From a virus (taxonomy: Duplodnaviria; Caudoviricetes): a stretch of DNA of 55,283 nt. This document shows positions 6,845 to 33,558 of this stretch, in pieces. The position numbers were made by a program, and so were the translations under genes. Each line of letters opens with the position of its first letter. The first letter of the stretch is position 1. The stretch spans positions 1 to 55,283 of IMG/VR virus record IMGVR_UViG_3300027736_000059. One strand, given 5' to 3'. The notes under the pieces were generated by a model. That model had not been told where the DNA came from, made no database searches, and saw nothing but the letters and a program-made list of their open reading frames with translations.

Positions 6845-9800
6845 ATGGCTTATGACATTTCCTTTGATGATTTGATTCCTAGCAACCAGAAGACAAAAGA
6901 TGTTTCCTTTGATGATTTAATCCCAAAGAAATCTACTTCGCTGGTTACTAGACCAGACCAACAGACAAAAGATAAAGAGGCTCTTTCTATTCTTCAAAAA
7001 GAAAAAGAAAAAGCTTCTGTTGCTCTTGCTGAAGCCCAGCGTCTCAAGGATAAAGCCAGAGAAGATAGGGCTGCTGCTGATGTTCTATCATTAGATAGGG
7101 AGATAGCCGCTACATCTAAGAGGGCTAGTGTAGCCACTGCTGAGCCTGTAGCTGTAGAGCCTACACTGCCAGCGAGAGACAAGCAAGTCCGTACACCTTC
7201 TCTCTATGATATTAAAGCTGCCCCTGTAGAGACTAAGGCAGCGGAAGTAGCACCTGCTGCTCCTGCTCCTACGCCTACAACTGATGAGTCTAAAGTATCG
7301 GCTGCGTTTAGTTATAAATCTAAACTTGCTGAGGGGTTCAAGCCTAGAGCAGAAGCCATGAAGGAGAAGGTAGAACAGACAAGACTAGCAGAAGAGAATA
7401 AGATTCCTTTTGATGCCTTGACACAATCTCCTGCGCTTAAGAAAACTATTGATGATTATGTACTAGCTCGTTTTGGCAAGAGTGAATTGCAAAAGCCTAA
7501 CGAATCTGTAGAAGACTATGTTAATCGCTTTGCTCAGCAGATGCGTTTCCTTAAGACAGGTAATACATATTCACTAGGTTCTGAGATACAATTCTTAAAT
7601 AGTGCTAAACAAGAAGATAAGTTAAAGATGGATGCTGCTTATACCTTATGGGATAATATAGCAGACCCATCTATGATGACAGCAGGAGGAAAAGGACAGA
7701 AAGGAATTAGACCAGTAACAGATTCGTTACTGTCTATGTTCTCAGACCCGCTTACCTTTGTATCATTGGGAGCAGGGAAGATGCTTGCTACTCCCATTCA
7801 AAAAGCTGTAGCTGAACAGGGAATCAAGAAAGCTTTAGTTAGTAACATAGGCAAAGTAGCGGCTATACCTGCCATAGAAACAGCGCAGGGTGTAGCATCC
7901 GATACAGGACAGCAAAAGATAGAGTTAACAATCGCTGCCGCTCAGCTTAAAAATGCTGAAGATAGATTCCCTTCTCTTAGTCCTGAAGAACAGGATAAGC
8001 TTAAACCAACTTTAGATTTACTTAGAAAGAAAGTAGAAGAAGGCATTAATATCAAGCAAGCAGTTATCTCTGGAGTTGTCAGCGGCGTATTGGGTTCGGT
8101 AGAAGCTGCTGGTGTTCTTAAAGCCGGTAAGAAACTAGGCGGTGGACAAAGCAGCTTGGACGAAATCTTAGCTAGAAAGAAAGCAGGGCTTCCTGAAGCA
8201 CCTGCCCCTAAGCTGGAGGTTAAGGCATCTACAGGTACACAGAAGCAATTAGAAGATGACTACGATATCTTCGAAGGGCGTAACCTACTCGACAAACAAC
8301 TGATCAATCTTGATGGATTGTCAGGGATGGAGTATGAGAAAGCCTTCGCAAAGAATGAATCTGCTGTAGCACAGATGCAGGTTAGAAAAGAAATTAATAG
8401 AAAAGCTACACAGCTTGCACAGGAAGTATGGACTAGCCTACCTGAGTTTGCTCCCAAGCAGGGAGAGAAGATATCTGATGCAGTTAAGAATGTGTTTCTT
8501 AACATAGACAGTGTTGATGATGTGGCTTTGAAAGATGCGTTTGCAAAGGCAAACATCACTCCTGAAGAGTTTGCTCGTATGAACAGAACTACAGTGAGTG
8601 ATGCAGCCAGCACAATGCAAAGCTATTCTGTTCTAGCAAGGATACAAAATAAGCTAAAGAGCATTGACCCTGCTGCCGCTAAAGAAGTAGACCTGATGTA
8701 TGGTAATAGGAATGCCATTACTGATTCGTTTGGTTTTATCAAAGACATTAGCATGAGGGCAGACAGAGAACTAAAAGCCTTGATGGTTTCTCAGATAGCC
8801 ACGACTGTTCGTAATGCTTACTCAGGTTTAACTGTTGTTACTTTTGGAGTAGCTTCCGAAGCTGTTGAGTCTGCTCTTTACAGAATTGGTAAAACATCTG
8901 CTGAGATATACACAGGAAAGCCTGTCACTGGCTCGTTCACTAACGGTATCAAGGGCGTGTGGAATGATGCATTCAGAACAGCTTCTTATCTGTCTGATGC
9001 TGGCCTATCTGCTGACGTAGCAGAAAGATTGCTGGCAGGTTCGCCAACACTAAGCAGCCTTATTCTTAAGACTGCTGGTGAAGCTGGTGATCAGGGCTTG
9101 TCCAGAGTGGGACAGATTGCCAATACCTTTAACGTGGCACAGGATGCTTTCTTTAGAAGAGCCATCTTTGCTGCTAACGTAGAGAAGCAGCTAAGTCGTG
9201 TCGGAATAGACATGTTTGATGTGTTGGCACAAAATAAGAACATTCCCTTGGATGTTCTCAAGAATGCTACAAATGAAGCATTACTCGCTACATTTAGTAA
9301 GATGCCTACCAAAGGGCCGGTTTACCATGCAGTTAAGTTTATCGAAGAGCTTGGCCCTGTAGGGTCAACGCTGATACCTTTCCCCCGCTTCATGGCTAAT
9401 GCTATGGAATGGACAGCAACACACAGCCCAATAGGTCTTGTGTCAGGTGCTGTCGATGTTGCTAGCACAGACCTCAATAAAAGAATAGCTGGGCTAGAGA
9501 AGCTGTCTAAAGGAATTGTAGGAACTGGTGCAATCTATGCCGCTTACAAATACAGAAAAGATAACCAAGACACTGAGTGGTACGATGCTAAGAACACTGA
9601 TGGCAGCTTGGTTGATACTAGGGCATTCTTTCCTGTTGCTCCTTTCCTAGCGCTGGGTGACTACTTGGTTAAGCTGGAGAATGGAACTACAAGTGAATTC
9701 AAAGCTAAAGAATTATTTGAGGCAGTGACTGGATTCAAGATGCCAGCAGGTACGAATAGCTGGCTGGGTGACCAGTTTGCTACAGCAGCTTCCAACTGGC

Positions 9801-12583
9801 AAGCCTCAGCAACTGGCGAAGATGTGGCACAAAAGAAAGTAAGTACATTCTTTGGTGAGTGGGCTGGTCAATACTTCGGTAGAGCGCTCATCCCTCTTCA
9901 GCAATTGAGTGACATCATTGGTGCTGTTGATAGAAACGAAACTCTTCCCCGTTCTGTTTATGAAATCAAGCAAGGAGAAGAAGGCTTTATTCCCTCTGCA
10001 AAGAATGTGCTGATGTCAAAAGTTCCTGTGTTGAAGCAGGAACTACCAGTAGCACAGCCGGTCACAAAGACTGAAGCTTCCTTCAATGATGCTGGCTTAC
10101 TGAAGATGTTTGCTGGTATATCAATTAAGGTTAACCCAACTGACTTCGAGAAAGAGATAACTCGCCTCAATGTTCCTTACAACAAACTATTCACCACCAC
10201 AGGTGATAAGGTTGTTGACAGACAGGCTAAGGAAATTCTTGCTCCACAATTGGTAGCTTCTTATGAGGCTTTAACAAGCACTGACTTCTATAAGAACACC
10301 AACAAAGACCTACAGAAGATATCGCTGGAGAACACACTTGCTGGTGTGCAGAAAGAAGCTAAGGCTGTTGCCGTAGATATGGCTAGAGCAAAAGCCATAG
10401 AAGGTGGCTTAGGGGCTGCTCGTGTTATAGAGAATAGATATGCAGCCAAACCCGCTGAAGTGAAGCGTCAGGCCGCTGCTCTGTACAAACAAAATACAGG
10501 CAAAGACCTTACTGAGACTGGGGATTATGAGGCCGGGTTAGCTTATGCTACGGCGGTACAGAACATCCTTAAGCCAACAACAGGTAAGGCTAATGGCGGT
10601 GTAGTGGGTTATGCTGGTGGCGGTCTTCTAGCTAAGAAGGTAGCTGGAGAAACTATAGAGCGTGGACTAACCAAGATTGGTGGTGACCTGTTACAGCAGA
10701 TGGATAACATGCTAGGCAAGAAAGTTGGCACGGAAATTGAAGAGACTGCTGCTGCCCTCAAGGCAACAAAAGAAACTTCTTTGGGTAAGAGTATGGTAGA
10801 ACCCGTCGAATCTATTACATCTACTAAGCGTCCTGTCTTTCGGCCTACATCTACTTCAAAGGTTGTTAAAGACGAAGGGCCATACTTAGGTGATGTTGAG
10901 AGAGAGGGACGTTTTGTAGACGCTCCTGAGCCCAATTTTACTAAACAAGAAGAGCAGGTTATTTCTGCCTCTCAAACATCCTTTTTAGAAGATTTAAAAA
11001 ATAAACTTAATAGTAAAGATACTTCTTATGGTAAGCAGAAGATGCTGCAAAGCATAATTAAAGTCGGCACTGAAGAAGAGAAAAAATGGGCTGCTTCTGA
11101 ACTTGCTGATTTGGCTGATAAACAATTTGATTTGTGGACAAAATATAAAGACGAAGGATATGATGTAGGGGAGTTTATTCCTGAGAAACCTTTCTATTGG
11201 GGTAACCCTGAGAAACAGGAGTATGATAAGAATCCTTTTTCATTTGCCCCAAAGCCGGTGAAAGATAAAGAAGGAAGAGCCATACCGGATTCTTTAATTA
11301 CCACTCTCCCTGAATCTAAAGTTGCTCAAGGAGACTTGGACGCTACATCTTTTGCAAGACAAGGCCCAAGCGTTAGAAAGCAAGTGCTTGCTACTATACG
11401 CCAAGCTAGGACAGATTCCTTTGATGCAATAACTAATCTGCCTAAGGTTAAGGAACTGCCGGATGCTGAGGATGTTATCGCGGTGGTGCAGGGTGATTTC
11501 CGTATCAAAGAAGGAAGAGAAATAAATCCGTCTAAAGCTGAAGACATTAGCATTGTCCAAGACATGGCTACTAAAGCACAGAAGAAACTGGATGCACTGA
11601 GAGAAGAATACAAAGATACTCCACCAGTAAAACTCTATCACGGCAAAGCTGCATATGCGGCTGAGCCTACTACTAGATATAAGACAGGCTTCTTAGACCC
11701 ACAACAGATAGATAAATATCACAGTGAAATGGAAGTGGGTGGTACATCGTTCACTAGGGATTTGAATTTAAACTTTGAGTCTCCTGTTTTTGGTGGGCCT
11801 AATGCAGATAAGATTGTCTACACAGAAATGCCATACGCTGACTACATGTTTAAGAGAATTAACATGGCTCCCACAGCGTATGATAATAAAAACTTAAATG
11901 TTATTGCTCAGTCTATCAACGGGTCTGATAGAGTTGTACGTCCCGTCAGTCTTCCGAGGTCTTCTAACTTTAAGGAAACAGAAGACATGATTACAGAGAC
12001 GGACAAGCTTCGTCCTGAAGGCAAGGGTACAGGTAATCAATTGGAAGTTAGATCAGCAGCTAACGATGTTACTCTTGCTGCTGCCAATCCTGAGAAAGTA
12101 TCTTTGCTTGGTAAAGGTGGAGATAAGAAGGGATTCATTAATCGTGTAAGAGAAGAAACAAATATCAAGGATAGGATTATCAACTTGAGTTCTGACCTCC
12201 ATACAGAGAAGAGTGGTGTTGCTGCCAATAAGATATATAAAGAGATAAGGAATCTCTTTAATAATTATATGGAGAAAGCTGATATCACTTCAACTAAAGC
12301 TGGCATGGGTCAGAGATATCACAGTGAACTATCTAATAACCTAAATATACTTAAAGGAACAGACAGTTCTATTCTCACCAAAAACCTACTGAGTACAACA
12401 AGCGATATCTTGGAGAAGCAGGGTTCTAAAGAGAAGGCTATGTTGCTACGTTCTTTGAGTAAAGAGTTAAAAGTATTAGGGGAAAACTGGGCTAGTGACG
12501 CTGCTGGTCAAGTTAAGAATGTCAACAATATCAGAGAGCTAACCCAGAAGCTAGCCAAGGGTGGACTAGTAGAAAGAAGATAA
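6845..12583 (+). CDS. Giant internal virion/ejection protein (1912 aa) with a possible C-terminal ART-like domain
   Basis: Last gene of the late arm. FDDLIP repeats at the N-terminus, PFPRF motif, LYHG...SFTRD...E in the C-terminal third. Confidence 0.65.
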   Translation: MAYDISFDDLIPSNQKTKDVSFDDLIPKKSTSLVTRPDQQTKDKEALSILQKEKEKASVALAEAQRLKDKAREDRAAADVLSLDREIAATSKRASVATAEPVAVEPTLPARDKQVRTPSLYDIKAAPVETKAAEVAPAAPAPTPTTDESKVSAAFSYKSKLAEGFKPRAEAMKEKVEQTRLAEENKIPFDALTQSPALKKTIDDYVLARFGKSELQKPNESVEDYVNRFAQQMRFLKTGNTYSLGSEIQFLNSAKQEDKLKMDAAYTLWDNIADPSMMTAGGKGQKGIRPVTDSLLSMFSDPLTFVSLGAGKMLATPIQKAVAEQGIKKALVSNIGKVAAIPAIETAQGVASDTGQQKIELTIAAAQLKNAEDRFPSLSPEEQDKLKPTLDLLRKKVEEGINIKQAVISGVVSGVLGSVEAAGVLKAGKKLGGGQSSLDEILARKKAGLPEAPAPKLEVKASTGTQKQLEDDYDIFEGRNLLDKQLINLDGLSGMEYEKAFAKNESAVAQMQVRKEINRKATQLAQEVWTSLPEFAPKQGEKISDAVKNVFLNIDSVDDVALKDAFAKANITPEEFARMNRTTVSDAASTMQSYSVLARIQNKLKSIDPAAAKEVDLMYGNRNAITDSFGFIKDISMRADRELKALMVSQIATTVRNAYSGLTVVTFGVASEAVESALYRIGKTSAEIYTGKPVTGSFTNGIKGVWNDAFRTASYLSDAGLSADVAERLLAGSPTLSSLILKTAGEAGDQGLSRVGQIANTFNVAQDAFFRRAIFAANVEKQLSRVGIDMFDVLAQNKNIPLDVLKNATNEALLATFSKMPTKGPVYHAVKFIEELGPVGSTLIPFPRFMANAMEWTATHSPIGLVSGAVDVASTDLNKRIAGLEKLSKGIVGTGAIYAAYKYRKDNQDTEWYDAKNTDGSLVDTRAFFPVAPFLALGDYLVKLENGTTSEFKAKELFEAVTGFKMPAGTNSWLGDQFATAASNWQASATGEDVAQKKVSTFFGEWAGQYFGRALIPLQQLSDIIGAVDRNETLPRSVYEIKQGEEGFIPSAKNVLMSKVPVLKQELPVAQPVTKTEASFNDAGLLKMFAGISIKVNPTDFEKEITRLNVPYNKLFTTTGDKVVDRQAKEILAPQLVASYEALTSTDFYKNTNKDLQKISLENTLAGVQKEAKAVAVDMARAKAIEGGLGAARVIENRYAAKPAEVKRQAAALYKQNTGKDLTETGDYEAGLAYATAVQNILKPTTGKANGGVVGYAGGGLLAKKVAGETIERGLTKIGGDLLQQMDNMLGKKVGTEIEETAAALKATKETSLGKSMVEPVESITSTKRPVFRPTSTSKVVKDEGPYLGDVEREGRFVDAPEPNFTKQEEQVISASQTSFLEDLKNKLNSKDTSYGKQKMLQSIIKVGTEEEKKWAASELADLADKQFDLWTKYKDEGYDVGEFIPEKPFYWGNPEKQEYDKNPFSFAPKPVKDKEGRAIPDSLITTLPESKVAQGDLDATSFARQGPSVRKQVLATIRQARTDSFDAITNLPKVKELPDAEDVIAVVQGDFRIKEGREINPSKAEDISIVQDMATKAQKKLDALREEYKDTPPVKLYHGKAAYAAEPTTRYKTGFLDPQQIDKYHSEMEVGGTSFTRDLNLNFESPVFGGPNADKIVYTEMPYADYMFKRINMAPTAYDNKNLNVIAQSINGSDRVVRPVSLPRSSNFKETEDMITETDKLRPEGKGTGNQLEVRSAANDVTLAAANPEKVSLLGKGGDKKGFINRVREETNIKDRIINLSSDLHTEKSGVAANKIYKEIRNLFNNYMEKADITSTKAGMGQRYHSELSNNLNILKGTDSSILTKNLLSTTSDILEKQGSKEKAMLLRSLSKELKVLGENWASDAAGQVKNVNNIRELTQKLAKGGLVERR

Positions 12584-12803: not shown

Positions 12804-12880
12804 TGGTTTGTCCTATTGGAATTGAACCAATGACCTACAGCTTAGAAGGCTGTTGCTCTATCCAACTGAGCTAAGGACAA
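12804..12880 (-). tRNA. tRNA-Arg(UCU) with encoded CCA
   Basis: Acceptor stem TTGTCCT/AGGACAA, D arm TAGCTCAGTTGGATAGAGC, anticodon arm ACAGC-CTTCTAA-GCTGT, T arm ATTGG-TTCAATT-CCAAT, then A-CCA. Confidence 0.95.
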
Positions 12881-24682: not shown

Positions 24683-25783
24683 TTAAACAAATCCACGCAT
24701 TCTTGCTGCCACTGTAGCCCCCTTAAGTGTGTGCTTCATGTACGGAGCAACACTCTGCGGTGTAGCATGGCCTGTCATAGCCATGATGTTAGGCAGAGGC
24801 ACTTCAGCCTCAATCATTTCTGTCACCGCTGTCCTTCGCAAGTCCATCAAGAAGACATCCTTAGGTACACCAGCTACATCCATTATTGCACCACCTATTC
24901 GTGCCAGTTGGGCGGGGTTGTATGGTATCAGTCCTCCCTTACCATCACGGATGGTGCTGGGTGCTATGTACTGCTGCCATCCGAAGTCTTTGTGCTGCTG
25001 CTCCAACATGTTACGCAAGTTCTCTGACGTTGGCAAGGACACATCAACCCCTCGCTTGCTCTGCTCAAGGGACAGCGTACCTGTGCCACTGTCGTAGTTG
25101 CTCCACTGAAGCAGACGTATATCACCTAGCCTCTGTCCCCACTCATAGGCCATCTGCACAATTAAACCAATGTTGCGCCACTTAAATTTGCTATACGCTA
25201 CATCCAAGAACGCAGCCACATGCTCCCTCTCCCACACTATCTTGCGTTGCTTGTCAGCCCTTCTAAGTATGTGTGTGAATGGATTGTGTGTGGTGAAACC
25301 ATTGCGTATAGCATGATTGAATAGCAACCTATACACAGCTAAGCTGTGGTTAGCGAGACTAACACTTGTTGCAGCGTGGTTGTCGTATACACGCTGACAC
25401 ATTGGTGTAAGTATATCCCGTAGCTTAGCCTTGCTCAATGGCACACCACCTACCCTATCAGTTAACCAGCGTGATAGATAGTAGTCGTAGTCTGCTTTTG
25501 TTTTAGGCTCAAGCTTTTCATAAGCTAAACTATTCTTATAGTTTATTAGAAGGTCTGTCACTGTGGATGTGCTGGATAAATTCTTTAGTCTGTCGCGCTC
25601 TTCACGCCATTCATCTAAGATTTTATTCTGCTCATCAGCATACTTGAAAGCTATCTTCCAGTTGTTACCTAACGACTTACTCTCCACCACCCCAGCCTTG
25701 ACAGCGAGAGGCGGTGGATTGTATCTATAGATAATACCAGTGGGTTTAGTCTCTCGCATTAGATAGCGAGGGAGTGTACTCAT
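24683..25783 (-). CDS. Tyrosine recombinase/integrase
   Basis: GQRLGDIR (R), QSKR (K), MDLRRT (HxxR variant), TGH and PY catalytic residues; N-terminal arm-binding-like region. Confidence 0.85.
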   Translation of the reverse strand: MSTLPRYLMRETKPTGIIYRYNPPPLAVKAGVVESKSLGNNWKIAFKYADEQNKILDEWREERDRLKNLSSTSTVTDLLINYKNSLAYEKLEPKTKADYDYYLSRWLTDRVGGVPLSKAKLRDILTPMCQRVYDNHAATSVSLANHSLAVYRLLFNHAIRNGFTTHNPFTHILRRADKQRKIVWEREHVAAFLDVAYSKFKWRNIGLIVQMAYEWGQRLGDIRLLQWSNYDSGTGTLSLEQSKRGVDVSLPTSENLRNMLEQQHKDFGWQQYIAPSTIRDGKGGLIPYNPAQLARIGGAIMDVAGVPKDVFLMDLRRTAVTEMIEAEVPLPNIMAMTGHATPQSVAPYMKHTLKGATVAARMRGFV

Positions 25784-26658
25784 ACTTCTAGTTCCTCTGC
25801 CATAAGTTCAGGTAACTTTACAATGCCCATGTCGTAGAGCTTCTCAGCCATAGCCAGCAGTTCGTCGTGCTTAACCAGTGCCTTGAGCCATCGCTTAGGT
25901 ATGCTGCTGTAGCCATACATTGCACCAGCCATCATGCCTGTCACTGCACCTACAGTGTCTGCATCGTGGCCCTTGTTAACTGCATGTACTACAGCATCCT
26001 CAAAGCATGTGTTCATGTAGCAGGATTGTGAAGCCTGAACATAAGCATGCATGATGGAGCCATGTGTTTCTCTGCCACTGCTACGGATATTGAAACTACG
26101 GAATTTGTTGTAGTTAGCAAACATCTTTGCTGACATACACTCAGCAATGAAAGCAGCGGTGTATTGCACAACCTCAGGGCTACCATGTGTCATCAACGAC
26201 ACAGCCACACCCTCAGCCACAGCTAGTGCAACACTATCGTGATTGGCTAGCATGATGGGAGCTAGTCGCATGATGGAGCCGTTGCCGCTGGCTTGCAAGT
26301 CTGCGCTGCCAGCATAGGGAAACTCAGATGTCATCTTGTCGATAGCACCGGAGCAGGTACGGCCTATGTCAAAGACATAAGTCCTTGTACCAAAGTGTCC
26401 ACTCTTACGCCATGTCTTGAAGTTGGTGGCAATATCAGCGGGGCTGAATCGTCCAGTGCTGATGTAAGCATCGGCAATAGCCACAGCCATAGCACCATCG
26501 TCTGTCCACTCTCCCTTGTCTGTGCTGTGTACACCACCACCTGTCATTTCGCTATGCACTCCCTCAATCTCATAGGGACGGAGAAATTCCAGCGGTGCGC
26601 CTAATGCATCACCAACAAACAAACCCATGAACATACCGATTGCTTTATCTTTAATCAT
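25780..26658 (-). CDS. ADP-ribosylglycohydrolase (DraG/ARH family)
   Basis: VGDALGAPLEF, WTDD, GNGSIMRLAP, TH, DADTVGAVTG; start reassigned to MIKDK. Confidence 0.9.
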   Translation of the reverse strand: MIKDKAIGMFMGLFVGDALGAPLEFLRPYEIEGVHSEMTGGGVHSTDKGEWTDDGAMAVAIADAYISTGRFSPADIATNFKTWRKSGHFGTRTYVFDIGRTCSGAIDKMTSEFPYAGSADLQASGNGSIMRLAPIMLANHDSVALAVAEGVAVSLMTHGSPEVVQYTAAFIAECMSAKMFANYNKFRSFNIRSSGRETHGSIMHAYVQASQSCYMNTCFEDAVVHAVNKGHDADTVGAVTGMMAGAMYGYSSIPKRWLKALVKHDELLAMAEKLYDMGIVKLPELMAEELEV

Positions 26659-26905
26659 AATTATTTTTCCAAAAGTCTTTTGCCTGTGCTTGTAGTCGAG
26701 CCTGAAACACAGCGTACTCAGCCCTCGCTGCTTGCTCATCCCCATACCACAACCACCAGCCGCCCTCGCCTCTGACATTGTGATGCCCATCGCATCCACT
26801 CAGTATCTGCCAGCCCCTATCAAGGAAGGCATGCAGTTGCTCACCAGTTCCGACACTTAAAAGTACCCTTTTCTCATACACTTGTGAACCTAAAGGTTGA
26901 ATCAT
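26651..26905 (-). CDS. Hypothetical protein
   Basis: Co-oriented ORF overlapping both neighbours. Confidence 0.55.
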   Translation of the reverse strand: MIQPLGSQVYEKRVLLSVGTGEQLHAFLDRGWQILSGCDGHHNVRGEGGWWLWYGDEQAARAEYAVFQARLQAQAKDFWKNNYD

Positions 26906-27126
26906 TTGGTTTGTCCTACATCGTAGTTCTTATACATATCAAGGCGAGAGTTAAGCCGTGTAATGCGGGTCTTGTTATAATCAACAACAGACTGAGCATA
27001 CTCAACACCTGTTTCAGCGGTGAGCAATTCCAAGTGTGCATCTGCTAGCTCTTGTGCTATCAATTGCAGGGGTGTGGGCTTCCTGAACGGCTGCTCCAGC
27101 AATTCCATAAGTTTAATCTTACGCAT
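26902..27126 (-). CDS. Hypothetical coiled-coil protein
   Basis: Start reassigned to MRKIKL (AAAGGA SD). The longer track ORF runs through the RNA element. Confidence 0.65.
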   Translation of the reverse strand: MRKIKLMELLEQPFRKPTPLQLIAQELADAHLELLTAETGVEYAQSVVDYNKTRITRLNSRLDMYKNYDVGQTK

Positions 27127-27148
27127 GTCAATTCCTTTGGTGATGATG

Positions 27149-27226
27149 AATAGGTGGGGGTACTCGCTGCACTGATTGACCGCCGTTCCGCAGTCCCCTG
27201 TATCAGCATCCGCTTTCCCCCGAAAA
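27149..27226 (-). ncRNA. Candidate structured RNA, copy A
   Basis: GGGGGAAAGCGGATGCTG...GCAGCGAGTACCCCCACCTATT; a paralog with the same ends lies at 32105-32186. Confidence 0.6.
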
Positions 27227-28102
27227 TTAAGCTGTTTCCAGTGCCTCTTGGCAGATAGTATCTGCAATGTCCCACAACTCGCTGTTGATACGGATACCTT
27301 CGGAGACGCTGTTAACTGGACGGGCTTTCCGCATGATGCCTTCGTTGTTCTTCTCAGTGAGACTCTTCACGAAAGCATTGCCTCGCACCACCGCTTCTTG
27401 AATGCGATTGAACACAGTGAATGCATCCATGTAATCGTCTTCATTACGCTGCACCTTCAGTGCATCACGGACAGTGGCTTCTGTAGCATACACACCATTG
27501 GGCTGCTTGACCAGTGCCTCAGTGTTGAGCATGTTCCAACGGGTTTGAACACCAGCCCTTGCCATTGCTTGTGCTTGGGAGTAGAGCAGTTTAGTCTGAC
27601 GCAGCTTCTCAATACGCTCCATCAATGTGGGCAATGCATCCACTGTGTTACGCAGCATATCTTCAAAGCCAGTGATGGCACGGACATTGTGGTGGATACG
27701 GGATTGGAATCCGTCACCGGCAACGATGCCATTCGAGCAGATAAACCGGAAACATCCAGCAAACAAACGCACACTGCTGCTGCCATCGTGGCTGTTGTAC
27801 AGAATAATCTCAGGCCGCAAAGCACCGACTACTTCCTCAGTGTGGTAGGTTTTAGCGAAGCTCAGCATGTGTGATGAGTGCTGTGTCTCACCCTTGCGGT
27901 TCTTCTTTTGTGCAGCTTGCATTGGGAAGTAGCCATAGTCTGCCATGATGGGCAGCAATTCGCTGGTATTGAGAGAGGCATAACGATTTGTTAAGCGCTC
28001 TGCTTTGGTGTTGCTAAACACAGCAGGGGCTAGCTGCTGGATACGCTCAGTGGAGAGAGCAGTATTGTTTACATTACGGGAGAAGATGAGATGCTTTTGC
28101 AT
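27227..28102 (-). CDS. DUF932/DUF945 family protein
   Basis: IILYNSHDGSSS...FRFICSNG, R.ED...FTVFNRIQE, N.ELW. Confidence 0.85.
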   Translation of the reverse strand: MQKHLIFSRNVNNTALSTERIQQLAPAVFSNTKAERLTNRYASLNTSELLPIMADYGYFPMQAAQKKNRKGETQHSSHMLSFAKTYHTEEVVGALRPEIILYNSHDGSSSVRLFAGCFRFICSNGIVAGDGFQSRIHHNVRAITGFEDMLRNTVDALPTLMERIEKLRQTKLLYSQAQAMARAGVQTRWNMLNTEALVKQPNGVYATEATVRDALKVQRNEDDYMDAFTVFNRIQEAVVRGNAFVKSLTEKNNEGIMRKARPVNSVSEGIRINSELWDIADTICQEALETA

Positions 28103-28160
28103 ACAAGAGTTCCTTAAAGGAGGGTTGAGAAAACGAAATAAAGAGGCATTAATTTACCAC

Positions 28161-28192
28161 TTTCCACAGGGATGTCGAGTCCCTGTAGAAAA
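28161..28192. repeat. Intergenic inverted repeat overlapping a weak leftward promoter-like sequence
   Basis: tttccacaggga-tgtcgag-tccctgtagaaa; the minus strand reads TCGACA-N16-TAAATT. Confidence 0.45.
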
Positions 28193-28196
28193 TGTC

Positions 28197-28424
28197 CTAC
28201 TGTTTAGCAGGGTCTTTCTTCACCAACGGATGAACCATAGCGAAGGCAGATATGTGGGCTATGTCACCGAACATGTCACGGCAGAAGCTGTATGCCCCGT
28301 CTATGTGGTCAAAGAAGAATACATGCTCACTGATGGGTAGTTGTATGTAGCTTTTGTTTGGTACTTTGTACAGGCTTTCGACAGGCATCCTATCGAAGTC
28401 TGCGATATCTATTTCGCTAATCAT
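28197..28424 (-). CDS. Hypothetical protein
   Basis: FFDHIDGAYSFC motif; AAGGA SD. Confidence 0.7.
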   Translation of the reverse strand: MISEIDIADFDRMPVESLYKVPNKSYIQLPISEHVFFFDHIDGAYSFCRDMFGDIAHISAFAMVHPLVKKDPAKQ

Positions 28425-28594
28425 TATTTTTCCTTCACGTTAAGTTGGTTGTGATGGGCTATATCAAGTTTCAGTTCCTGCTGACCAGCGGCATAGCCCA
28501 TGTCGAAGTCAGCCTGTGCTATCCCGTGTTCACCGAAGCATACCTTAGGCCCATTCCTGAAGCCACACATAAATCCATAGGTGTAGAAAGACAT
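28424..28594 (-). CDS. Small hypothetical protein (56 aa, not in the ORF track)
   Basis: MSFYTYGFMCGF...FDMGYAAG...; AGGA SD; TAATG overlap with the next gene. Confidence 0.6.
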   Translation of the reverse strand: MSFYTYGFMCGFRNGPKVCFGEHGIAQADFDMGYAAGQQELKLDIAHHNQLNVKEK

Positions 28595-28602
28595 ACGCTT
28601 TC

Positions 28603-29037
28603 CTATTCTGCAAACGTAAACGAAGCAATGACACGCATCCCTGCCTTGCTAGAAAACATATCCACTGTGTTGCCATTAACCACAGCAAGAGCATGCCCCC
28701 TAACAATGACAACATGCCTACCCTTTGGGTTGTCAGCAAGGAATGTCTTTAGTGTCATGCCTTTGTCGCGGTATGTCACTGCATGTTCCATAGACATCTT
28801 CGCCATCCGCTTGCCATAGTAGGTGACATTGAAAGCACCAGCTTCCTTGTACACCTTGTCCAGTGCATGCCACGGAGTTCCTTTGTTGTCCCTACGTCCT
28901 GCCCTGTTTAGCAAGGACAGAGCTAAGGGATAGGAGTAAACACCTACATTAGCAATTGCCCTCACTGCACAATCACGCTTTTGTTTTAGGCCGAAGTCAT
29001 TAGCGACATAGCCTACGTCTTTGGGTTTGATATACAT
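28603..29037 (-). CDS. Putative papain-fold (C39-like) Cys-His protein
   Basis: DCAVRAIA...GHALAVVNG..D pattern. Confidence 0.5.
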   Translation of the reverse strand: MYIKPKDVGYVANDFGLKQKRDCAVRAIANVGVYSYPLALSLLNRAGRRDNKGTPWHALDKVYKEAGAFNVTYYGKRMAKMSMEHAVTYRDKGMTLKTFLADNPKGRHVVIVRGHALAVVNGNTVDMFSSKAGMRVIASFTFAE

Positions 29038-29061
29038 ACGTTTCCTTTCAGGAATGGTTAG

Positions 29062-29331
29062 TTAAACTGTAGCTTGATACCCTTGGTATGATCTGATTTT
29101 GCTTTTCCCGCTGGAGTTTTTCTCCACAAATTTGATACGAACATCACGCTCATTCAATGCTTGGCACAATATAGGCAGGTCACAGTCTTCTTCCAAGTAC
29201 ACATTGTCCCGTAGCTGGTAGCTGTAATTGCTGATAACCTGTGCCAAACCTAAGTTCTCCAGCACCTGTCGCTTCACCTTACCCCATGCATGCCCTGCAT
29301 CGGAGTACACAATAATTGTGAATGTTTTCAT
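29062..29331 (-). CDS. Conserved phage early protein (DxGHxW...YLEEDCD)
   Basis: SDAGHAW, ISxYSY, YLEEDCD and SxIRxY motifs. Confidence 0.75.
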   Translation of the reverse strand: MKTFTIIVYSDAGHAWGKVKRQVLENLGLAQVISNYSYQLRDNVYLEEDCDLPILCQALNERDVRIKFVEKNSSGKSKIRSYQGYQATV

Positions 29332-29549
29332 ACGCTTCCTTGTACAGGTCGGAATTTGATTTTAGCGTTGATGAGTGGATTCGGTGTCGGCTCACACACT
29401 ACTTCGTAGCCCAACAAACTGATGTTCTTCATTGCCTCAATCGTCAGGGTCTTAGTGCCACACATCGAAGCAAATATCTTTGCCTTTGCACACACTGGGT
29501 AGGCCACAACACAGCCATACACTTCCTTCAGGTTAATATGTATTTGCAT
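29328..29549 (-). CDS. Hypothetical protein
   Basis: VYG...YPVCxxAxxFAxxxGTKTLT motif; AGGAG SD. Confidence 0.75.
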   Translation of the reverse strand: MQIHINLKEVYGCVVAYPVCAKAKIFASMCGTKTLTIEAMKNISLLGYEVVCEPTPNPLINAKIKFRPVQGSV

Positions 29550-29572
29550 AACGCTCTCCTTTTAGTTTGGTG

Positions 29573-29956
29573 TTACCACCATGAATAATAAAACACAGCA
29601 TAGTCAGCGACTAATGCATCGGTTGCCAATTCGATAAACCTTTCGGTGTTATCAATATCATATTGATCTATCTCAGCGTTACCAAAAAAGAAACCAGCCT
29701 CATGGGTAAGCTTGTTACTTCGTAAGTCATTCGCCATGTTCTCTATGTCCTGTGCATCAAGCCGAAGGTAAATGCAATTGAATTGCCCTGTGCCGCCCTT
29801 CTTCTCATAGAGCTTACGCATCCAACCATGAAGATGATTAAACTTACGCCAGTAAGCCACCTTCAAAGGCTTCACACCAGCAGTGAATCCCTCCATGATC
29901 TGAGTATCACCAACGTCTTTAGACGGGGTAACAAATGCATACATATCTAGTCCCAT
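29573..29956 (-). CDS. Conserved phage protein (MGLDMY...YWRK family)
   Basis: MGLDMY, YWRKxNxLHGW, GFFFG, YYSWW. Confidence 0.8.
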   Translation of the reverse strand: MGLDMYAFVTPSKDVGDTQIMEGFTAGVKPLKVAYWRKFNHLHGWMRKLYEKKGGTGQFNCIYLRLDAQDIENMANDLRSNKLTHEAGFFFGNAEIDQYDIDNTERFIELATDALVADYAVFYYSWW

Positions 29957-29957
29957 A

Positions 29958-30209
29958 TCAATGTCCTTTCATGTAGGTTTGTGAATAAACGATATCATCG
30001 TTGATGTTTTCGGGAATAATATAATCACCAGTGTGGTTGTTAGCCTTGACATATTCCTCAATGTCACTCTCCAACATGTGTCGCCGTTCATGGATGGCAT
30101 GAATGATGTACATAGGATGTGCAAACCCTTCGCCAACATAGAAATTACCTAGTTCAAACTCACCAAACCACACCATCACAGGTACTAGTTTATCGCTTAC
30201 GATTTTCAT
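29958..30209 (-). CDS. Hypothetical protein
   Basis: Start follows a copy of the repeat element. Confidence 0.65.
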   Translation of the reverse strand: MKIVSDKLVPVMVWFGEFELGNFYVGEGFAHPMYIIHAIHERRHMLESDIEEYVKANNHTGDYIIPENINDDIVYSQTYMKGH

Positions 30210-30220
30210 ATTGTTTCCTT

Positions 30221-30466
30221 TCAGGAAGTGTAATCGTTGTAAACTTGGACAGTGGCAAAGTCTACATGCCAGTTAAAGCTAGCCCAGCGCAGTGATGTGA
30301 TGCCAGTGCTTGCTATGCTTACAAGCTTGACGGAACGCACAACTGGGCATTTGTCAGTCTCTATGTTATGTACTGATATGCCATCACAAGGGAAGCATTG
30401 GTCATAACGTAGCATGTCATGGGGAAACTTACCCTTGCCCATCACTGTGAATGTAATTATTTTCAT
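30221..30466 (-). CDS. Hypothetical protein (GxFPxDMLRYDxCxP family)
   Basis: GKFPHDMLRYDQCFP and RWxSFxW; SD and stop codon are both supplied by repeat elements. Confidence 0.75.
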   Translation of the reverse strand: MKIITFTVMGKGKFPHDMLRYDQCFPCDGISVHNIETDKCPVVRSVKLVSIASTGITSLRWASFNWHVDFATVQVYNDYTS

Positions 30467-30571
30467 TTTATTTCCTTTCAGGAATATCCCTATCGGGGAA
30501 TCGTTTCACAAATTGCTAAACTGTTAATGAAATCAACAGCTTAGCTTCAAAATATCGTTTCACCAATCGTT

Positions 30572-30952
30572 TCACAGCGAAGCGCTGATGAAGCCCTTGC
30601 CACCCTCTGCCAACAATGCAGCCCACTTGGCACTATGCACCGGCTGCTCTGTGCTTCGCTGCACAAAGCTGGTGTACTTGTAGGGGTTGTAGGTGATGGC
30701 TGTACCCATCATCATGTACCGACTGTGTACATCATGAGCACCACTGTCTGCCATGTGTCCAGCGACACCGGCATGGACATTCTTGCGCTTCTCTGCCAGC
30801 ACCCTGCTTCGCCCAGCTTGTGACACCTTGAACGTCACATCTGAGAGCAACACACTATTAGTGTGACCAATTACCAGCCCCTTGAACTGGCCCTCAAGAG
30901 CCTTAATGCTAAAGCATTTCTTGTGTAGGTTGAAATATACGAAGACTTTCAT
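30572..30952 (-). CDS. Conserved phage protein (VYxNLH...KNVHA family)
   Basis: VYFNLHK.CFSI, VSQAGRxRV..KRKNVHA, YNPY; start reassigned to follow the repeat element. Confidence 0.8.
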   Translation of the reverse strand: MKVFVYFNLHKKCFSIKALEGQFKGLVIGHTNSVLLSDVTFKVSQAGRSRVLAEKRKNVHAGVAGHMADSGAHDVHSRYMMMGTAITYNPYKYTSFVQRSTEQPVHSAKWAALLAEGGKGFISASL

Positions 30953-30980
30953 TTTGTTTCCTTTCAGGAAGTGAGTTGAT

Positions 30981-31178
30981 TTATTTGTTGGTTGGGCTGT
31001 TGAAGTAGTCACCTACGGGGCGACCATAACGCTCTGGACAGCGCCCCATTTGCATTCCTAATGCAAAGATGGCATCGTCACGATTCTTGGCAGTAAACCC
31101 TTGGCCCAATTGACCAAGCATATCTTTATAAACTGCATGCCACATCTTAATGTTCCGGTGGTATGTAACTGTAATCAT
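30981..31178 (-). CDS. Hypothetical protein
   Basis: Start follows the variant repeat element. Confidence 0.65.
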   Translation of the reverse strand: MITVTYHRNIKMWHAVYKDMLGQLGQGFTAKNRDDAIFALGMQMGRCPERYGRPVGDYFNSPTNK

Positions 31179-31198
31179 TTTATTTCCTTTAGGAAGAG

Positions 31199-31483
31199 TT
31201 ACTTTGTTGGGCCGAATGACATACTGCCATCCATCATATCAAACACTAGGGCTTTCGCCCTGTTCAAATACATTCTAGCACTGTCGCTGTCGCCGTGTGC
31301 CATCATCTCTTGGGCATCTGACATCAGCCCTGCCACCACCATTGCACCACCGGAGAAGCGGTAGGTGATGGATTGTTTGACACTTTCTTTGAAAGTTTCA
31401 ATGTTGCAGCCATACATTTGCATGTCATTCGTTACCGAATATTTAACCAAATTGCTGTATTCAGCGGGGTTTGTGAATATCAT
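31199..31483 (-). CDS. Hypothetical protein
   Basis: MYGC...MSDAQE...ARxxLNRAK motif; start follows a repeat element. Confidence 0.7.
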   Translation of the reverse strand: MIFTNPAEYSNLVKYSVTNDMQMYGCNIETFKESVKQSITYRFSGGAMVVAGLMSDAQEMMAHGDSDSARMYLNRAKALVFDMMDGSMSFGPTK

Positions 31484-31496
31484 GATGTGTTTCCTT

Positions 31497-31676
31497 TCAG
31501 GAATGTTTCAGGGATTTTCGATAGGCCACAAAGGTATTCCCTTTGTAGACAGCAGCACCACAATCGTAGCAAGCTGCCCAGCTTAGCGCCTCTTTGAAGG
31601 TGAAGGTGTGATGCATTGCATCAAATTGAGGACACCACACAGTGTAACCAAATAGCTCCGCTAGTGTTTGTTTCAT
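31497..31676 (-). CDS. Small hypothetical protein (59 aa, not in the ORF track)
   Basis: MKQTLAELFGYTVWC...HHTFTFKEALSWAACY; the TGA stop lies inside the repeat element. Confidence 0.65.
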   Translation of the reverse strand: MKQTLAELFGYTVWCPQFDAMHHTFTFKEALSWAACYDCGAAVYKGNTFVAYRKSLKHS

Positions 31677-31843
31677 TCTGCCACCTCTTCGAGTTGCATC
31701 ATAAAGTCAATGGCGTTGTCCAGTGCCTCACCTATGGTTTCATCACTGCCCTCGCTCTTGGGCTGCTCTTTATCTGTCCTAGACAGAGTGTCCCGAATGT
31801 CATAAAGATCAAACAGGACGATTTGGATTTGCTCTAAGTTCAT
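31673..31843 (-). CDS. Small acidic hypothetical protein (56 aa, not in the ORF track)
   Basis: MNLEQIQIVLFDLYDIRD...; start follows a repeat element; ATGA overlap. Confidence 0.65.
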   Translation of the reverse strand: MNLEQIQIVLFDLYDIRDTLSRTDKEQPKSEGSDETIGEALDNAIDFMMQLEEVAE

Positions 31844-31855
31844 GATTGTTTCCTT

Positions 31856-32083
31856 TCAGGAAGTGATTTCAGAATTGTAGGCTTCAGCCAGTGCATTTTC
31901 GCTGTCAATCGTCAACTGGTCAAACACCTGTTGCTTCGTGCCTTTGTAGCCCATACCCTTAAGAATTGCATAGCAAGTCTTACCTTTAGAGGTGAGTCGC
32001 ATACCTCGCATCTCCAGTTTAAGTCCTTGCCTTAGTGAACGGAGACGGAAGGCTTCGATTTGATCGGGGGTTGTTAACATCAT
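31856..32083 (-). CDS. Hypothetical protein
   Basis: LRxGLKLExxGM motif; SD and stop codon come from repeat elements. Confidence 0.7.
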   Translation of the reverse strand: MMLTTPDQIEAFRLRSLRQGLKLEMRGMRLTSKGKTCYAILKGMGYKGTKQQVFDQLTIDSENALAEAYNSEITS

Positions 32084-32104
32084 GATTGTTTCCTTTCAGG
32101 AATT

Positions 32105-32186
32105 AATAGGTGGGGGTACTCACTTCACTGCATCTACTACGAATCCACGATTTACGCAGTCACAGCATCTGCTTTCCCCCCGAAAA
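32105..32186 (-). ncRNA. Candidate structured RNA, copy B
   Basis: GGGGGGAAAGCAGATGCTG...GAAGTGAGTACCCCCACCTATT; paralog of 27149-27226. Confidence 0.6.
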
Positions 32187-32188
32187 GA

Positions 32189-32455
32189 TTAACGAAGCGA
32201 AGCAGCTTCGCCGCTCAGTGCCACAGATACAATTGTATCCCTGTTGATGCAGCGATAACCTGCATTCTGCATGTCATACACCACAAGGTATTTGCTGTGG
32301 TCAACAGTGGACAAACCACCTTTCAGGTGTTTCTTCACACCTAATCGGCAATTCATTTTGCGAAGCTGTCCGTCTTTCTTTTTAAAGACTACAGTTACGA
32401 ATTTGCCTTTGCTTTCAGCAATGAGAGCGGAAAAAGCAGCAGATATAATGGACAT
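32189..32455 (-). CDS. WYL_2/SH3-like (Sm-like) domain protein
   Basis: FVTVxFxKKDGxLRxMxCR...VYDxxxxGYRxIN; start reassigned to MSIIS (AAAGGA SD). Confidence 0.7.
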   Translation of the reverse strand: MSIISAAFSALIAESKGKFVTVVFKKKDGQLRKMNCRLGVKKHLKGGLSTVDHSKYLVVYDMQNAGYRCINRDTIVSVALSGEAASLR

Positions 32456-32680
32456 AATTTTCCTTTGTTGGATAGTTGCTTGATAGATACTCTGTAGCCC
32501 AGTGCCACAAAGCATCTTAAAGCGTCCACTGTATAACACCGACCCCGATGCCACTGTAGACACATCCTGCACATATTATCACCATGATATGTCAGCATAG
32601 ATAGCGGAATTCCCTCGCCGCTACTCAAGCCCAGCCAATTTCAGCTTCGCTGTCACCGAAGCATACTGATACCGGAATTA

Positions 32681-32695
32681 AATTTTTAAAGAACA
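32681..32695 (-). promoter_or_regulatory. rrn-type boxA antitermination element
   Basis: TGTTCTTTAAAAATT on the transcribed strand in a ~330-nt intergenic leader, preceded by the hairpin AAAGCCC-TAA-GGGCTTT (32760-32776). Confidence 0.6.
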
Positions 32696-32787
32696 ATCGG
32701 GAGAAGCTTCGCTTCACAGCGGGGCTTAACCCTATAGAGAAAGTACGATAACCCTCTGCAAAGCCCTTAGGGCTTTACGCAGTGCTA

Positions 32788-33558
32788 TCAGGCTGCTAAT
32801 GCAATCGGTATGAATTTCCTTTCAGGAATACTCTTACGATCAAACACAAAGCCACTGTAATCAAGCTTCGCTTTGCCTTTTGCATACAGTGCCACAACGA
32901 CACCCTTTTCCTCTAAGTGACGAATGTCACTGTTATCACCACCGATTACAGCCATTCCCCTATGCATCTTCGGAATCGAAGCAACGTCACGGAATACTGT
33001 CGCAATTCGCATCCCAAGGGCCACTGCTTTTTCAACAAAGGGCTGAAAGCCCTGCACACCGCTATCACTGAAGGTCAGGTCATAATTTGCTGGAATAAAT
33101 CTACGATTTACATCCTTGGTGTAGTCGTAGAATTGAACGTCAGGGAAAGCAGCAAATATGTTTACATATTCAGTGCCATCGGCATCGACAAAAGCTACGC
33201 TTTCCCAACGAATATCACTAGTGCCGTTCAATCGAATCAGCGCTGTCTTATTTTGCTTTGTTGCTTTAGCAACTAGCTGACGAATATTCATTGCCAATTG
33301 CACCATGAAAGAGCTACGCTCTTCGAAGAACCATATTGTTTTGTTGATTCGACCTTGTGCCACTGTTGACATAGCACCCCGTCCAGCGGTGAATAGGCAT
33401 CCTTCGCTGCACTTGGCAATGCCAGCCATGCTGCAAGTATTCCACTTTGTGGAAGTGTATGGTGCTAGATAGAGGATGCCGGTTAAGAAACCAAAGGTTT
33501 CACCCTTTACAGTTTTGGCATCTGCACCGATAGAAAGCAAAGCTTTAGACTTGAACAT
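32788..33558 (-). CDS. GP88/DUF7227-like protein
   Basis: C-x7-C-x3-C cluster, GRG, RLNGTSDI, FYDYTK, YDLTFS. Confidence 0.75.
   Translation of the reverse strand: MFKSKALLSIGADAKTVKGETFGFLTGILYLAPYTSTKWNTCSMAGIAKCSEGCLFTAGRGAMSTVAQGRINKTIWFFEERSSFMVQLAMNIRQLVAKATKQNKTALIRLNGTSDIRWESVAFVDADGTEYVNIFAAFPDVQFYDYTKDVNRRFIPANYDLTFSDSGVQGFQPFVEKAVALGMRIATVFRDVASIPKMHRGMAVIGGDNSDIRHLEEKGVVVALYAKGKAKLDYSGFVFDRKSIPERKFIPIALAA

Follow-up and report, generated by a model that had tools for sequence, protein, structure and literature searches.

What is the intergenic element that occurs twice in the early operon of an uncultured freshwater phage, and what might it do there? The phage, IMG/VR record IMGVR_UViG_3300027736_000059 (55,283 bases, estimated to be 98% complete; this whole stretch of DNA is called the window below), encodes an integrase, a primase-helicase and a family A DNA polymerase, and its long early/replication operon runs on the minus strand from ~33.9 kb down to 13 kb. 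Metagenome runs containing window DNA are freshwater or lake samples. A preliminary description, made from the letters of the DNA, had reported two minus-strand copies of a motif, each following a stop codon and preceding the next ribosome-binding site. Both copies are present as reported (Table 1), each behind a TAA stop and with an AAAGGAA ribosome-binding site between it and the following start codon. The motif is a very common, uncatalogued structured RNA of uncultured freshwater phages, located between genes.

Within the window, the two copies share a 3′ 17-mer, GAGTACCCCCACCTATT, which occurs exactly twice in the 55,283 bases; with up to three mismatches allowed, 0.13 occurrences are expected by chance, and two matches were obtained in 0 of 100 shuffles. 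Judged by its letters alone, the shared 5′ part is less convincing, with three matches (at most three mismatches) against 1.01 expected, a result equalled by 7 of 100 shuffles. Single-sequence energies of −29.3 kcal/mol for copy 1 (z −2.2) and −23.2 kcal/mol for copy 2 (z −1.4) lie below those of shuffled sequences by only a modest margin. The two copies alone would not prove a structure.

The evidence for structure comes from a wider family. Four IUPAC patterns, each fixing different parts of the motif, were scanned against IMG/VR and returned at least 120 matches each, where we estimate that chance would provide a few for the first pattern. We assembled 290 IMG/VR phage loci (2.42 Mb, labelled with L-numbers). 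Among the matches listed by the first two scans there were at least 207 distinct instances, and 191 with a basal helix (P1) of at least 3 bp were kept; all counts below out of 191, 187, 170, 167 or 150 are subsets among the matches listed and not family totals. A covariance model, R1, built from the instances of other phages, recovered only these two copies in the window (scores in Table 1), the next best match scoring 10 bits. R1 gave 101 matches in 100 loci, and each of five near-complete phage genomes (51–63 kb, 92–100% complete) contained exactly one match. What had been presented as a two-copy element of one phage is instead a family found in hundreds of phage contigs, usually with one copy per genome. 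Cultured phages (50,697 records) yielded no match by megablast of positions 26000–33500 or by blastn of copy 1 at E ≤ 10. In species-representative prokaryote genomes a strict pattern matched once, on a contig of a betaproteobacterial metagenome-assembled genome (MAG), a count that is a lower bound, the pattern having fixed a 5-bp P1 and the sequence ACC.

The base of the fold is highly conserved. An A/U-rich leader, usually C-final, precedes P1; at least 128 of the 191 instances have C immediately ahead of this helix. P1 comprises 5 bp in 117 instances, 4 bp in 52, 6 bp in 12 and 3 bp in 10; its pairs are nearly all G-C and yet they covary, pair 3 being GC in 169, UA in 7, AU in 7, CG in 4, GU in 2 and UG in 2 of the 191, and the P1 of L304 is fully compensated (GAAGCC/GGCUUC). 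On the distal side of P1 the strands carry the signature of a bulged-G module (loop E, or S-turn), which is predicted for both window copies and for the family at large. When its letters were left free in a scan, the distinct instances listed read GAAA/GAGUA in 78 of 84, AAAA/GAGUA in 4 and GAAA/AAGUA in 2. The G of GAA faces the last A of AGUA, because the P1 variants GAGG-G/C-CUC, GUUGG-G/C-CAAC and GAAGCC-G/GGCUUC fit only in this register. The loop-E-like core of GAA opposite AGUA, as first described, is thus backed by family covariation, with the last G before AAA as the base that faces the A of AGUA and not a C. The sarcin-ricin loop and loop E of rRNAs likewise have AGUA opposite GAA beside a C-G pair; however, the motif lacks the GAGA tetraloop of the sarcin-ricin loop and matches no rRNA model, and the module is a building block rather than a family.

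The S-turn is followed by a 2-bp helix, P2, which reads GC/GC in 103 of 114 cases, GC/GU in 5, AC/GU in 2 and GU/GC in 2; the variant in L292, read as a likely C·A mismatch, is the sole one of its kind. The second motif copy of L124 (GAAAAC...GUGAGUA) has A-U in place of the usual G-C pair of P2, a compensatory change. Between the two window copies themselves, a G>A and a C>T difference had been taken as a compensatory pair, but these positions do not pair with each other. The partner of the C/U is the G of GAAAGC, which makes the change one-sided (G-C to G·U), and the G/A lies in the internal loop, facing an A. This internal loop is irregular, with RRAU (R, purine) opposite GCA preceded by a U or AC linker; it is conserved in 175 of 191 instances (linker AC in 89, U in 77). 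Pairing in the next helix, P3, was counted from an anchor, since the U/AC dimorphism of the linker otherwise shifts the register. Its pair 4 is GC in 58, UA in 43, AU in 14, UG in 10, CG in 7 and GU in 6, and P3 strands formed 4.62 consecutive pairs with their own partners against 3.39 with permuted ones (maximum 3.62 in 200 permutations). Beyond P3 the distal hairpin is variable and 20–50 nt long, while the ~45 nt nearest the base are almost invariant across phages with unrelated flanking genes.

Covariation was also examined in an unbiased set, A4, of 17 distinct rows found through relatives of the DUF932 protein encoded upstream of copy 1 and not by pattern. In A4, 90.4% of cells pair and 7 of the 13 pairs change on both sides; of 500 shuffles, none reached the covariation score, none the percentage paired and four the count of seven two-sided pairs. 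G·U pairs are common at fixed positions (P2, GC 9 and GU 7; P3, GU 8 and GC 5), and for this reason the fold is assigned to the sense strand. The proposal of a structured cis-RNA on that strand is therefore borne out, and covariation among homologues, whose absence would have spoken against the motif, is strong across the family. Some DUF932-protein relatives have plain pairs where the internal loop would be (L299, L301 and L302), and others a P2 helix of 4 bp in its place (L308, L311 and L312).

An unpaired RCC lies directly 3′ of P1 in 139 of 191 instances (ACCU in 90, ACCC in 30, ACCA in 11 and GCCU in 8). In 28 more the R is absorbed into a pair, and overall CC occurs within 4 nt of P1 in 171 of the 191; the tail letters were not fixed by the patterns behind these counts. 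An intrinsic (Rho-independent) terminator was considered and ruled out: the RCC always separates the stem from any U-tract, and three or more U follow the RCC in only 36 of 187 instances.

The preliminary description had been unable to place the motif in a known family, and database searches agree. A search of the whole window against Rfam 15 at gathering score returned only a tRNA gene (12807–12880, minus strand, 71.6 bits), which is distant from the motif and separates the structural arm from the replication arm, and positions 26900–32500 gave nothing at E ≤ 10. Seven other loci gave six matches at E ≤ 5, all attributable to chance and none on the motif, and the motif-only stretches of L038 and the window gave only chance matches of 6–11 bits. 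Word searches of the literature gave no description of the motif; it is not presented in passages from the main text of an IMG/VR catalogue with 8,495 candidate RNAs (PMC10690425), whose supplementary models may include one.

Table 1. Parts of the two motif copies and the genes on either side of them (window coordinates).
Feature	Position	Strand	Details
Copy 1, limits of the preliminary description	27149–27226	minus	leader UUUUC, hairpin, tail ACCUAUU; R1 score 71.8 bits
Copy 1, P1 5′ strand GGGG	27218–27221	minus	pairs with CCCC 27157–27160
Copy 1, unpaired base left beside P1	C27156	minus	by fold register
Copy 1, bulged-G (loop E) GAAA strand	27214–27217	minus	opposite GAGUA 27161–27165
Copy 1, 3′ strand	27161–27167	minus	P2 GC 27166–27167 (partner GC 27212–27213), then GAGUA 27161–27165
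Copy 1, P3 and variable distal hairpin	27172–27207	minus	internal-loop strands GGAU 27208–27211 and UGCA 27168–27171 on either side
Copy 1, unpaired ACC tail	27153–27155	minus	
Copy 2, limits of the preliminary description	32105–32186	minus	R1 score 65.0 bits
Copy 2, P1 5′ strand GGGGG	32177–32181	minus	pairs with CCCCC 32112–32116
Copy 2, bulged-G GAAA strand	32173–32176	minus	opposite GAGUA 32117–32121
Copy 2, unpaired ACC tail	32109–32111	minus	
Gene upstream of copy 1: DUF932, 291 aa	27227–28102	minus	stop TAA 27229–27227
Open reading frame downstream of copy 1: 74 aa, no family	26902–27126	minus	ATG 27126, start 26 nt past ACC
Gene upstream of copy 2: 127 aa, WYL_2-like	32189–32572	minus	stop TAA 32191–32189
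Open reading frame downstream of copy 2: 75 aa, phrog_19182, function unknown	31856–32083	minus	ATG 32083

The position of the motif relative to genes is as regular as its base. All 191 instances are intergenic, on the sense strand and behind a same-strand open reading frame (ORF), and P1 begins 4–8 nt past the stop codon in 143 of them. The upstream proteins tend to have acidic ends, with at least three D/E in the last ten residues in 82 of 167 against a background of 10%. Among the 150 of 164 upstream proteins that were scanned, 37 matched single-stranded DNA-binding protein (SSB) or Gp2.5-like PHROGs, 31 matched phrog_27714, 6 were nucleotidyltransferases, 5 Pam3 gp34-like and 4 Mu Gam. The SSB-type proteins belong to unrelated families, and phrog_27714, the commonest single upstream family, has no Pfam match and no PDB sequence match, the ESM Atlas offering only hypothetical viral clusters. 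Downstream genes fall into 67 clusters that include DNA polymerases, primase, Cas4-type exonuclease, MazG, RusA and many small ORFs. Terminator-like sites are rare near the motif, being found in 2 of 187 instances downstream (within 80 nt) and in 5 of 187 upstream.

A few further features of the neighbourhood were recorded. A family of cysteine-rich ORFs of ~60–90 aa, ending in ...CCYGNSCNTxCY, lies directly upstream of the motif in L129 (7887–8144) and 14 other loci, and has no PHROG or Pfam match. In the window, the DUF932 operon continues just downstream of copy 1 with a tyrosine integrase and an ADP-ribosylglycohydrolase (24683–26799, minus strand), and a 1,912-aa ORF occupies 6845–12583 on the plus strand.

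Two arrangements fit a likeness to stable RNAs. ARAGORN found only two tRNA genes in the 290 loci, neither overlapping a motif; in L050 (3273–3417, minus strand) a tRNA-Arg(UCU) with an encoded A-CCA end begins 6 nt past the ACC of the motif (ACC-UAU). Tandem copies of the motif, separated by 3–4 nt, occur behind an SSB gene in L124 (6131–6272, minus strand) and behind a DUF932 gene in L320 (~3345–3482).

The motif follows the DUF932 gene in 16 of 28 loci with orthologues of this protein. By eye, other elements were seen at this place in most of the 12 loci without a motif match: a G/C hairpin with a U-run, of the intrinsic-terminator type (L313, L316 and L319), a G/C hairpin without a U-run (L305, L306 and L310), a long hairpin (L314 and L317) or a G/C-rich inverted repeat (L323 and L324), with nothing obvious in L322. 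In L300 there is a fully paired variant that carries the distal module of window copy 1. A fully paired sister is also present in L299 and L301, as a second hairpin ~80 nt past the DUF932 stop codon and with an ACC tail; Watson-Crick pairing runs through its whole stem (GGAGGGAAG.../...CUUCCCUCC) where the motif has the S-turn. In L298–L303, a small inverted repeat of the GCTTAA-TTT-TTAAGC type spans the DUF932 stop codon, upstream of the motif.

In contrast to the base, the distal hairpin is exchanged freely. The 170 instances compared form 133 clusters of distal modules, 139 of upstream flanks and 140 of downstream flanks. Of 24 pairs in which both 200-nt flanks are alike, the modules are unrelated in 18, shared in 4 and intermediate in 2, and conversely 39 pairs have the same module between unrelated flanks; the module of window copy 1, for example, recurs behind unrelated genes in L041, L049, L056, L086 and L124. 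Replacement is clearest between near-identical genomes: L067 (3329–3408) and L108 (2507–2582) are 96.4% identical over 4,091 nt, and L070 and L120 are 96.5% identical over 8,765 nt, with unrelated hairpin interiors in both cases and a replaced interval that runs from just past GCUG to just before GCAGC. Further contig pairs with ~90–96.5% identity and unrelated motif interiors are L042/L069 and L032/L064.

How might such an element act? We tentatively favour, as a reasonable possibility short of a probable one, an mRNA punctuation and stability element that would imitate the terminus of a stable RNA, be cut by RNase P on its 5′ side and halt exonucleases at the RCC. Of the three roles that had been suggested at the outset (ribozyme, processing site and put-like antiterminator), the evidence favours the processing site. 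The element would be a cis-acting module for punctuation and end protection within the polycistronic early/replication message, whose base, through the G/C clamp of P1, the S-turn, P2 and the unpaired RCC, would imitate the paired 5′ and 3′ ends of the tRNA acceptor and of 4.5S RNA, so that host tRNA-maturation enzymes could act there. We infer the acting enzymes and the side of the cut: RNase P, with its P15 loop paired to the RCC, would cut 5′ of the first G of P1, and 3′-to-5′ exonucleases, trimming from any downstream cut, would halt at the helix and RCC. The upstream cistron (often SSB-type) and the downstream cistrons would then become separate messages of different stability, and the distal hairpin would be a mere cap, free to be replaced. 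This reading is suggested by the tRNA neighbour, the tandems that resemble tRNA arrays, the position behind highly expressed SSB-type genes and the plain hairpins or terminators that take its place in relatives.

Several known substrates lend it plausibility. As set out in part of PMC11143913, RNase P pairs the GGU of its P15 loop with RCCA, its substrates include pre-4.5S RNA, phage M3 RNA, P1/P7 C4 RNA, T4 gene 32 mRNA and polycistronic mRNAs, and ~12 stacked pairs ending in a T-loop are required for recognition of the tRNA type and not of the 4.5S type. In the motif, the RCC directly 3′ of the terminal helix is found in the 139 of 191 instances given above, P1, from its +1 G on, is almost all G-C, and the −1 base is mostly C, unpaired against A73. 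A stack of ~12 pairs with a T-loop is absent, the S-turn and internal loop interrupting the stack. Exonucleases such as RNase T stop at CC beside a duplex. The RNase P hairpin substrates (pre-4.5S, the P1/P7 C4 precursor and φ80 M3) have, like the motif, a long hairpin with a G/C-rich terminal helix and then an unpaired NCC, and E. coli 4.5S RNA (GGGGGC...GCCCCC-ACCC) shares the G5/C5-ACC ends. Unlike the motif, they are not known to us with a bulged-G module beside the terminal helix; the motif, for its part, matches no Rfam model for the signal recognition particle (SRP) RNA or C4, has yielded no antisense target and is hypervariable distally. Some of these substrates are, like the motif, phage-encoded within operons (part of PMC11143913).

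Two other kinds of intercistronic signal invite comparison. Mitochondrial tRNA punctuation, the t-elements of plant mitochondria and the mascRNA of MALAT1 are examples of tRNA-like punctuation, in which folds other than tRNAs stand between cistrons and borrow the tRNA end-processing machinery; the motif is likewise intergenic and sense and stands once beside a tRNA (L050). It differs in having no T-arm or cloverleaf (ARAGORN is negative) and in the S-turn that replaces acceptor/T-stem pairs, which confines the likeness to the helix end and RCC. Repetitive extragenic palindromic (REP) elements and the RNase III sites of T7 are intercistronic stabiliser hairpins. Like the motif, they are stable stem-loops behind stop codons in operons, and they give differing levels of upstream and downstream products; however, they are present in numerous copies per genome and it is chiefly their shape that is conserved, whereas the motif occurs about once per genome with ~45 almost invariant nt.

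A number of observations weigh against punctuation and end protection. RNase P cleavage and exonuclease stalling need neither a near-invariant S-turn nor a conserved internal loop, and their conservation points to a further partner or catalysis. No equivalent of a T-arm is present, and ARAGORN calls no copy of the motif a tRNA. Pre-tRNAs prefer U before the RNase P cut, and the motif mostly has C ahead of its putative cut. For a general punctuation signal, a single copy in each of the five near-complete genomes is a low number. The two halves of the reading also sit poorly together, as a 5′-side cut would leave the upstream (SSB) message without the hairpin that is meant to stabilise it. Finally, the SRP RNA of one betaproteobacterial MAG ends in ...GGCUCGCC-UCC and not in G5/C5-ACC; since the terminus of this examined RNA differs, the likeness to 4.5S RNA is generic. 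Given the near-invariance of the S-turn and internal loop and the single copy per genome, which the reading leaves unexplained, a specific partner or self-cleavage has to be taken seriously. We met the combination of a bulged-G module with a tRNA-like RCC end only a few pairs away in no library, and it should have a specific partner or chemistry.

Among the alternatives, a new class of small self-cleaving ribozyme, which would cut the polycistronic message unaided and have the S-turn, the irregular loop and the RCC beside the 5′ edge of P1 as its active site, is somewhat unlikely. It would suit the near identity of the ~45 base-proximal nt in the face of 139 upstream and 140 downstream flank clusters, the nearly invariant S-turn and a distal hairpin that varies as it does in known small ribozymes; tandem copies occur, and an activity independent of the host would explain the spread over many phage types. 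Hatchet ribozymes (RF02678), which cleave at the 5′ end of P1, possess a conserved 3′ tail and occur in phage-like contexts, offer a parallel, since they too are hairpin-like, their internal loops being conserved and their distal stems variable, and have a 3′ tail beside the 5′ end of P1. Neither the hatchet model in Rfam nor any known ribozyme family matches the motif, however, and catalysis by the motif is only a candidate activity. Moreover, Watson-Crick pairs can replace the internal loop (L299, L301 and L302), the sister hairpin of L299 and L301 keeps the distal module and the ACC tail on a fully paired stem that has no S-turn, and the nucleotide 5′ of P1 is variable.

Translational coupling, or an operator, is an unlikely alternative that draws on the spacing of the flanking genes. 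The base of the element would hide or position the start region, a ribosome terminating 4–8 nt upstream would open P1, and a host or phage protein might bind the S-turn, S-turns being classic protein-binding platforms. The tight spacing from the stop codon (4–8 nt in 143 of 191) is in keeping with this, as is the placement of Shine-Dalgarno (SD)-like motifs, which is opposite in two groups of downstream starts. Where the start lies 8–13 nt past P1, an SD-like motif is found between element and start in 0 of 44 instances and just upstream of the hairpin in 14 of 44; where it lies 16–21 nt past P1, the corresponding numbers are 75 of 105 and 4 of 105. The spacing to the start codon is, however, not fixed, and the downstream genes are very diverse (67 clusters). 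A translational operator makes no sense for tandem copies or for the copy ahead of a tRNA gene, which counts against it, and a specific SSB-RNA operator is unlikely because the upstream SSB-type proteins come from unrelated families.

The exchange of distal hairpins raises a further, decidedly unlikely, possibility: the base might be a scaffold releasing a stable, trans-acting small RNA of 65–95 nt, with the distal hairpin as its fast-changing functional part, for instance a decoy or specificity determinant. Modules do assort independently of the flanks (18 of the 24 like-flank pairs unrelated, 39 pairs sharing a module across unrelated flanks), and interiors are unrelated in L067/L108 and L070/L120 despite 96.4% and 96.5% identity. 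One module class holds ACTCTGAAGTGAAGCGC, 15 of whose 17 nt agree, perhaps by chance, with helix III/loop C of E. coli 5S rRNA, and others end in T-loop-like 7-nt loops. The 5S-like modules are those of L038 (1195–1276), L066 (6058–6139) and L057 (1623–1704), in which the Rfam 5S model gives no match; the T-loop-like ends, by reading, have a 5-bp stem and a loop of UGCAAGU or UGCAACU (L120 7047–7112, L112 and L286). On the other side, 133 module clusters among 170 instances look unconstrained, unlike mimics of a few targets, and the exchange could be a by-product of recombination between short conserved arms. Nor was complementarity in excess: within 1.5 kb of 172 instances the longest complement of the distal loops was no better than for permuted pairs, and in the whole window it was 11–13 nt, as in shuffles. 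A c4-type cis-antisense RNA was ruled out on the same searches. A variant of the idea, to which we give equally little weight, has the base as an expression frame read by the enzymes that mature tRNA and 4.5S RNA, and releasing a stable small RNA with a swappable payload, which phages would exchange at a high rate owing to its part in a conflict, for example as a decoy for a hairpin-recognising factor of the host or a rival phage; the look-alikes of 5S rRNA and tRNA arms would be possible instances.

A feature of the DNA itself with no RNA function (a recombination linker or hot spot, a mobile hairpin, or a single-strand initiation or origin signal) is very unlikely. One copy per genome, placement within replication/recombination modules and the replacement of interiors between near-identical genomes would all fit, and SD-like motifs upstream of the hairpin look as if the hairpin had been inserted between SD and start. 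An indel in relatives of the window phage also starts exactly at the 5′ edge of copy 2. Contigs of related phages lack copy 2 and the five small ORFs behind it, the missing 1,210 nt extending between 30971 and the first base of P1 in copy 2; the joint connects 32182 to 30971 with one extra A and sets the edge at 32181/32182. The boundaries of the missing segment are thus the first P1 base and a repeated ribosome-binding-site stretch, TTCCTGAAAGGAAACAA (window 30954–30971 and 32080–32103). Against a DNA-level role, 191 of 191 instances are on the sense strand, intergenic and directly behind a stop codon, G·U pairs occupy fixed positions, AGUA/GAA is an RNA motif, and the module is linked to neither flank. 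An integron attC-like cassette site is disfavoured because no pair among the 170 instances shares the module and one flank only: upstream flank and module are never shared without the downstream flank, and 18 pairs share flanks and not the module.

A processive antiterminator that resembles put (one of the original suggestions) or EAR and acts by modifying RNA polymerase during elongation is highly improbable: a conserved structured RNA with no coding role and one or two copies in long early operons is reminiscent of the put RNAs of HK022, which act in cis as folded RNAs, but the motif is not promoter-proximal (copy 2 sits ~1.7 kb into the operon), only 2 of 187 instances have a terminator-like site in the 80 nt downstream, relatives carry real terminators at the same position, and R1, applied unfiltered to the complete HK022 genome, found nothing better than 9.2 bits (E 0.67) inside the integrase gene, a weak test because R1 was built from the motif family itself.

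The replacement of hairpin interiors between ~96% identical genomes is unusual and could reveal a recombination hot spot formed by two 20-nt arms or, alternatively, diversifying selection. If the frame for processing and stability is as we propose, the base would provide a ready natural scaffold for expressing RNA hairpins in bacteria. The motif also offers a compact, testable model for how phages without RNase III-type sites divide long messages and adjust SSB levels relative to those of the replication enzymes. With it, the known repertoire would gain a structured RNA that ranks among the most abundant uncatalogued ones of freshwater phages.

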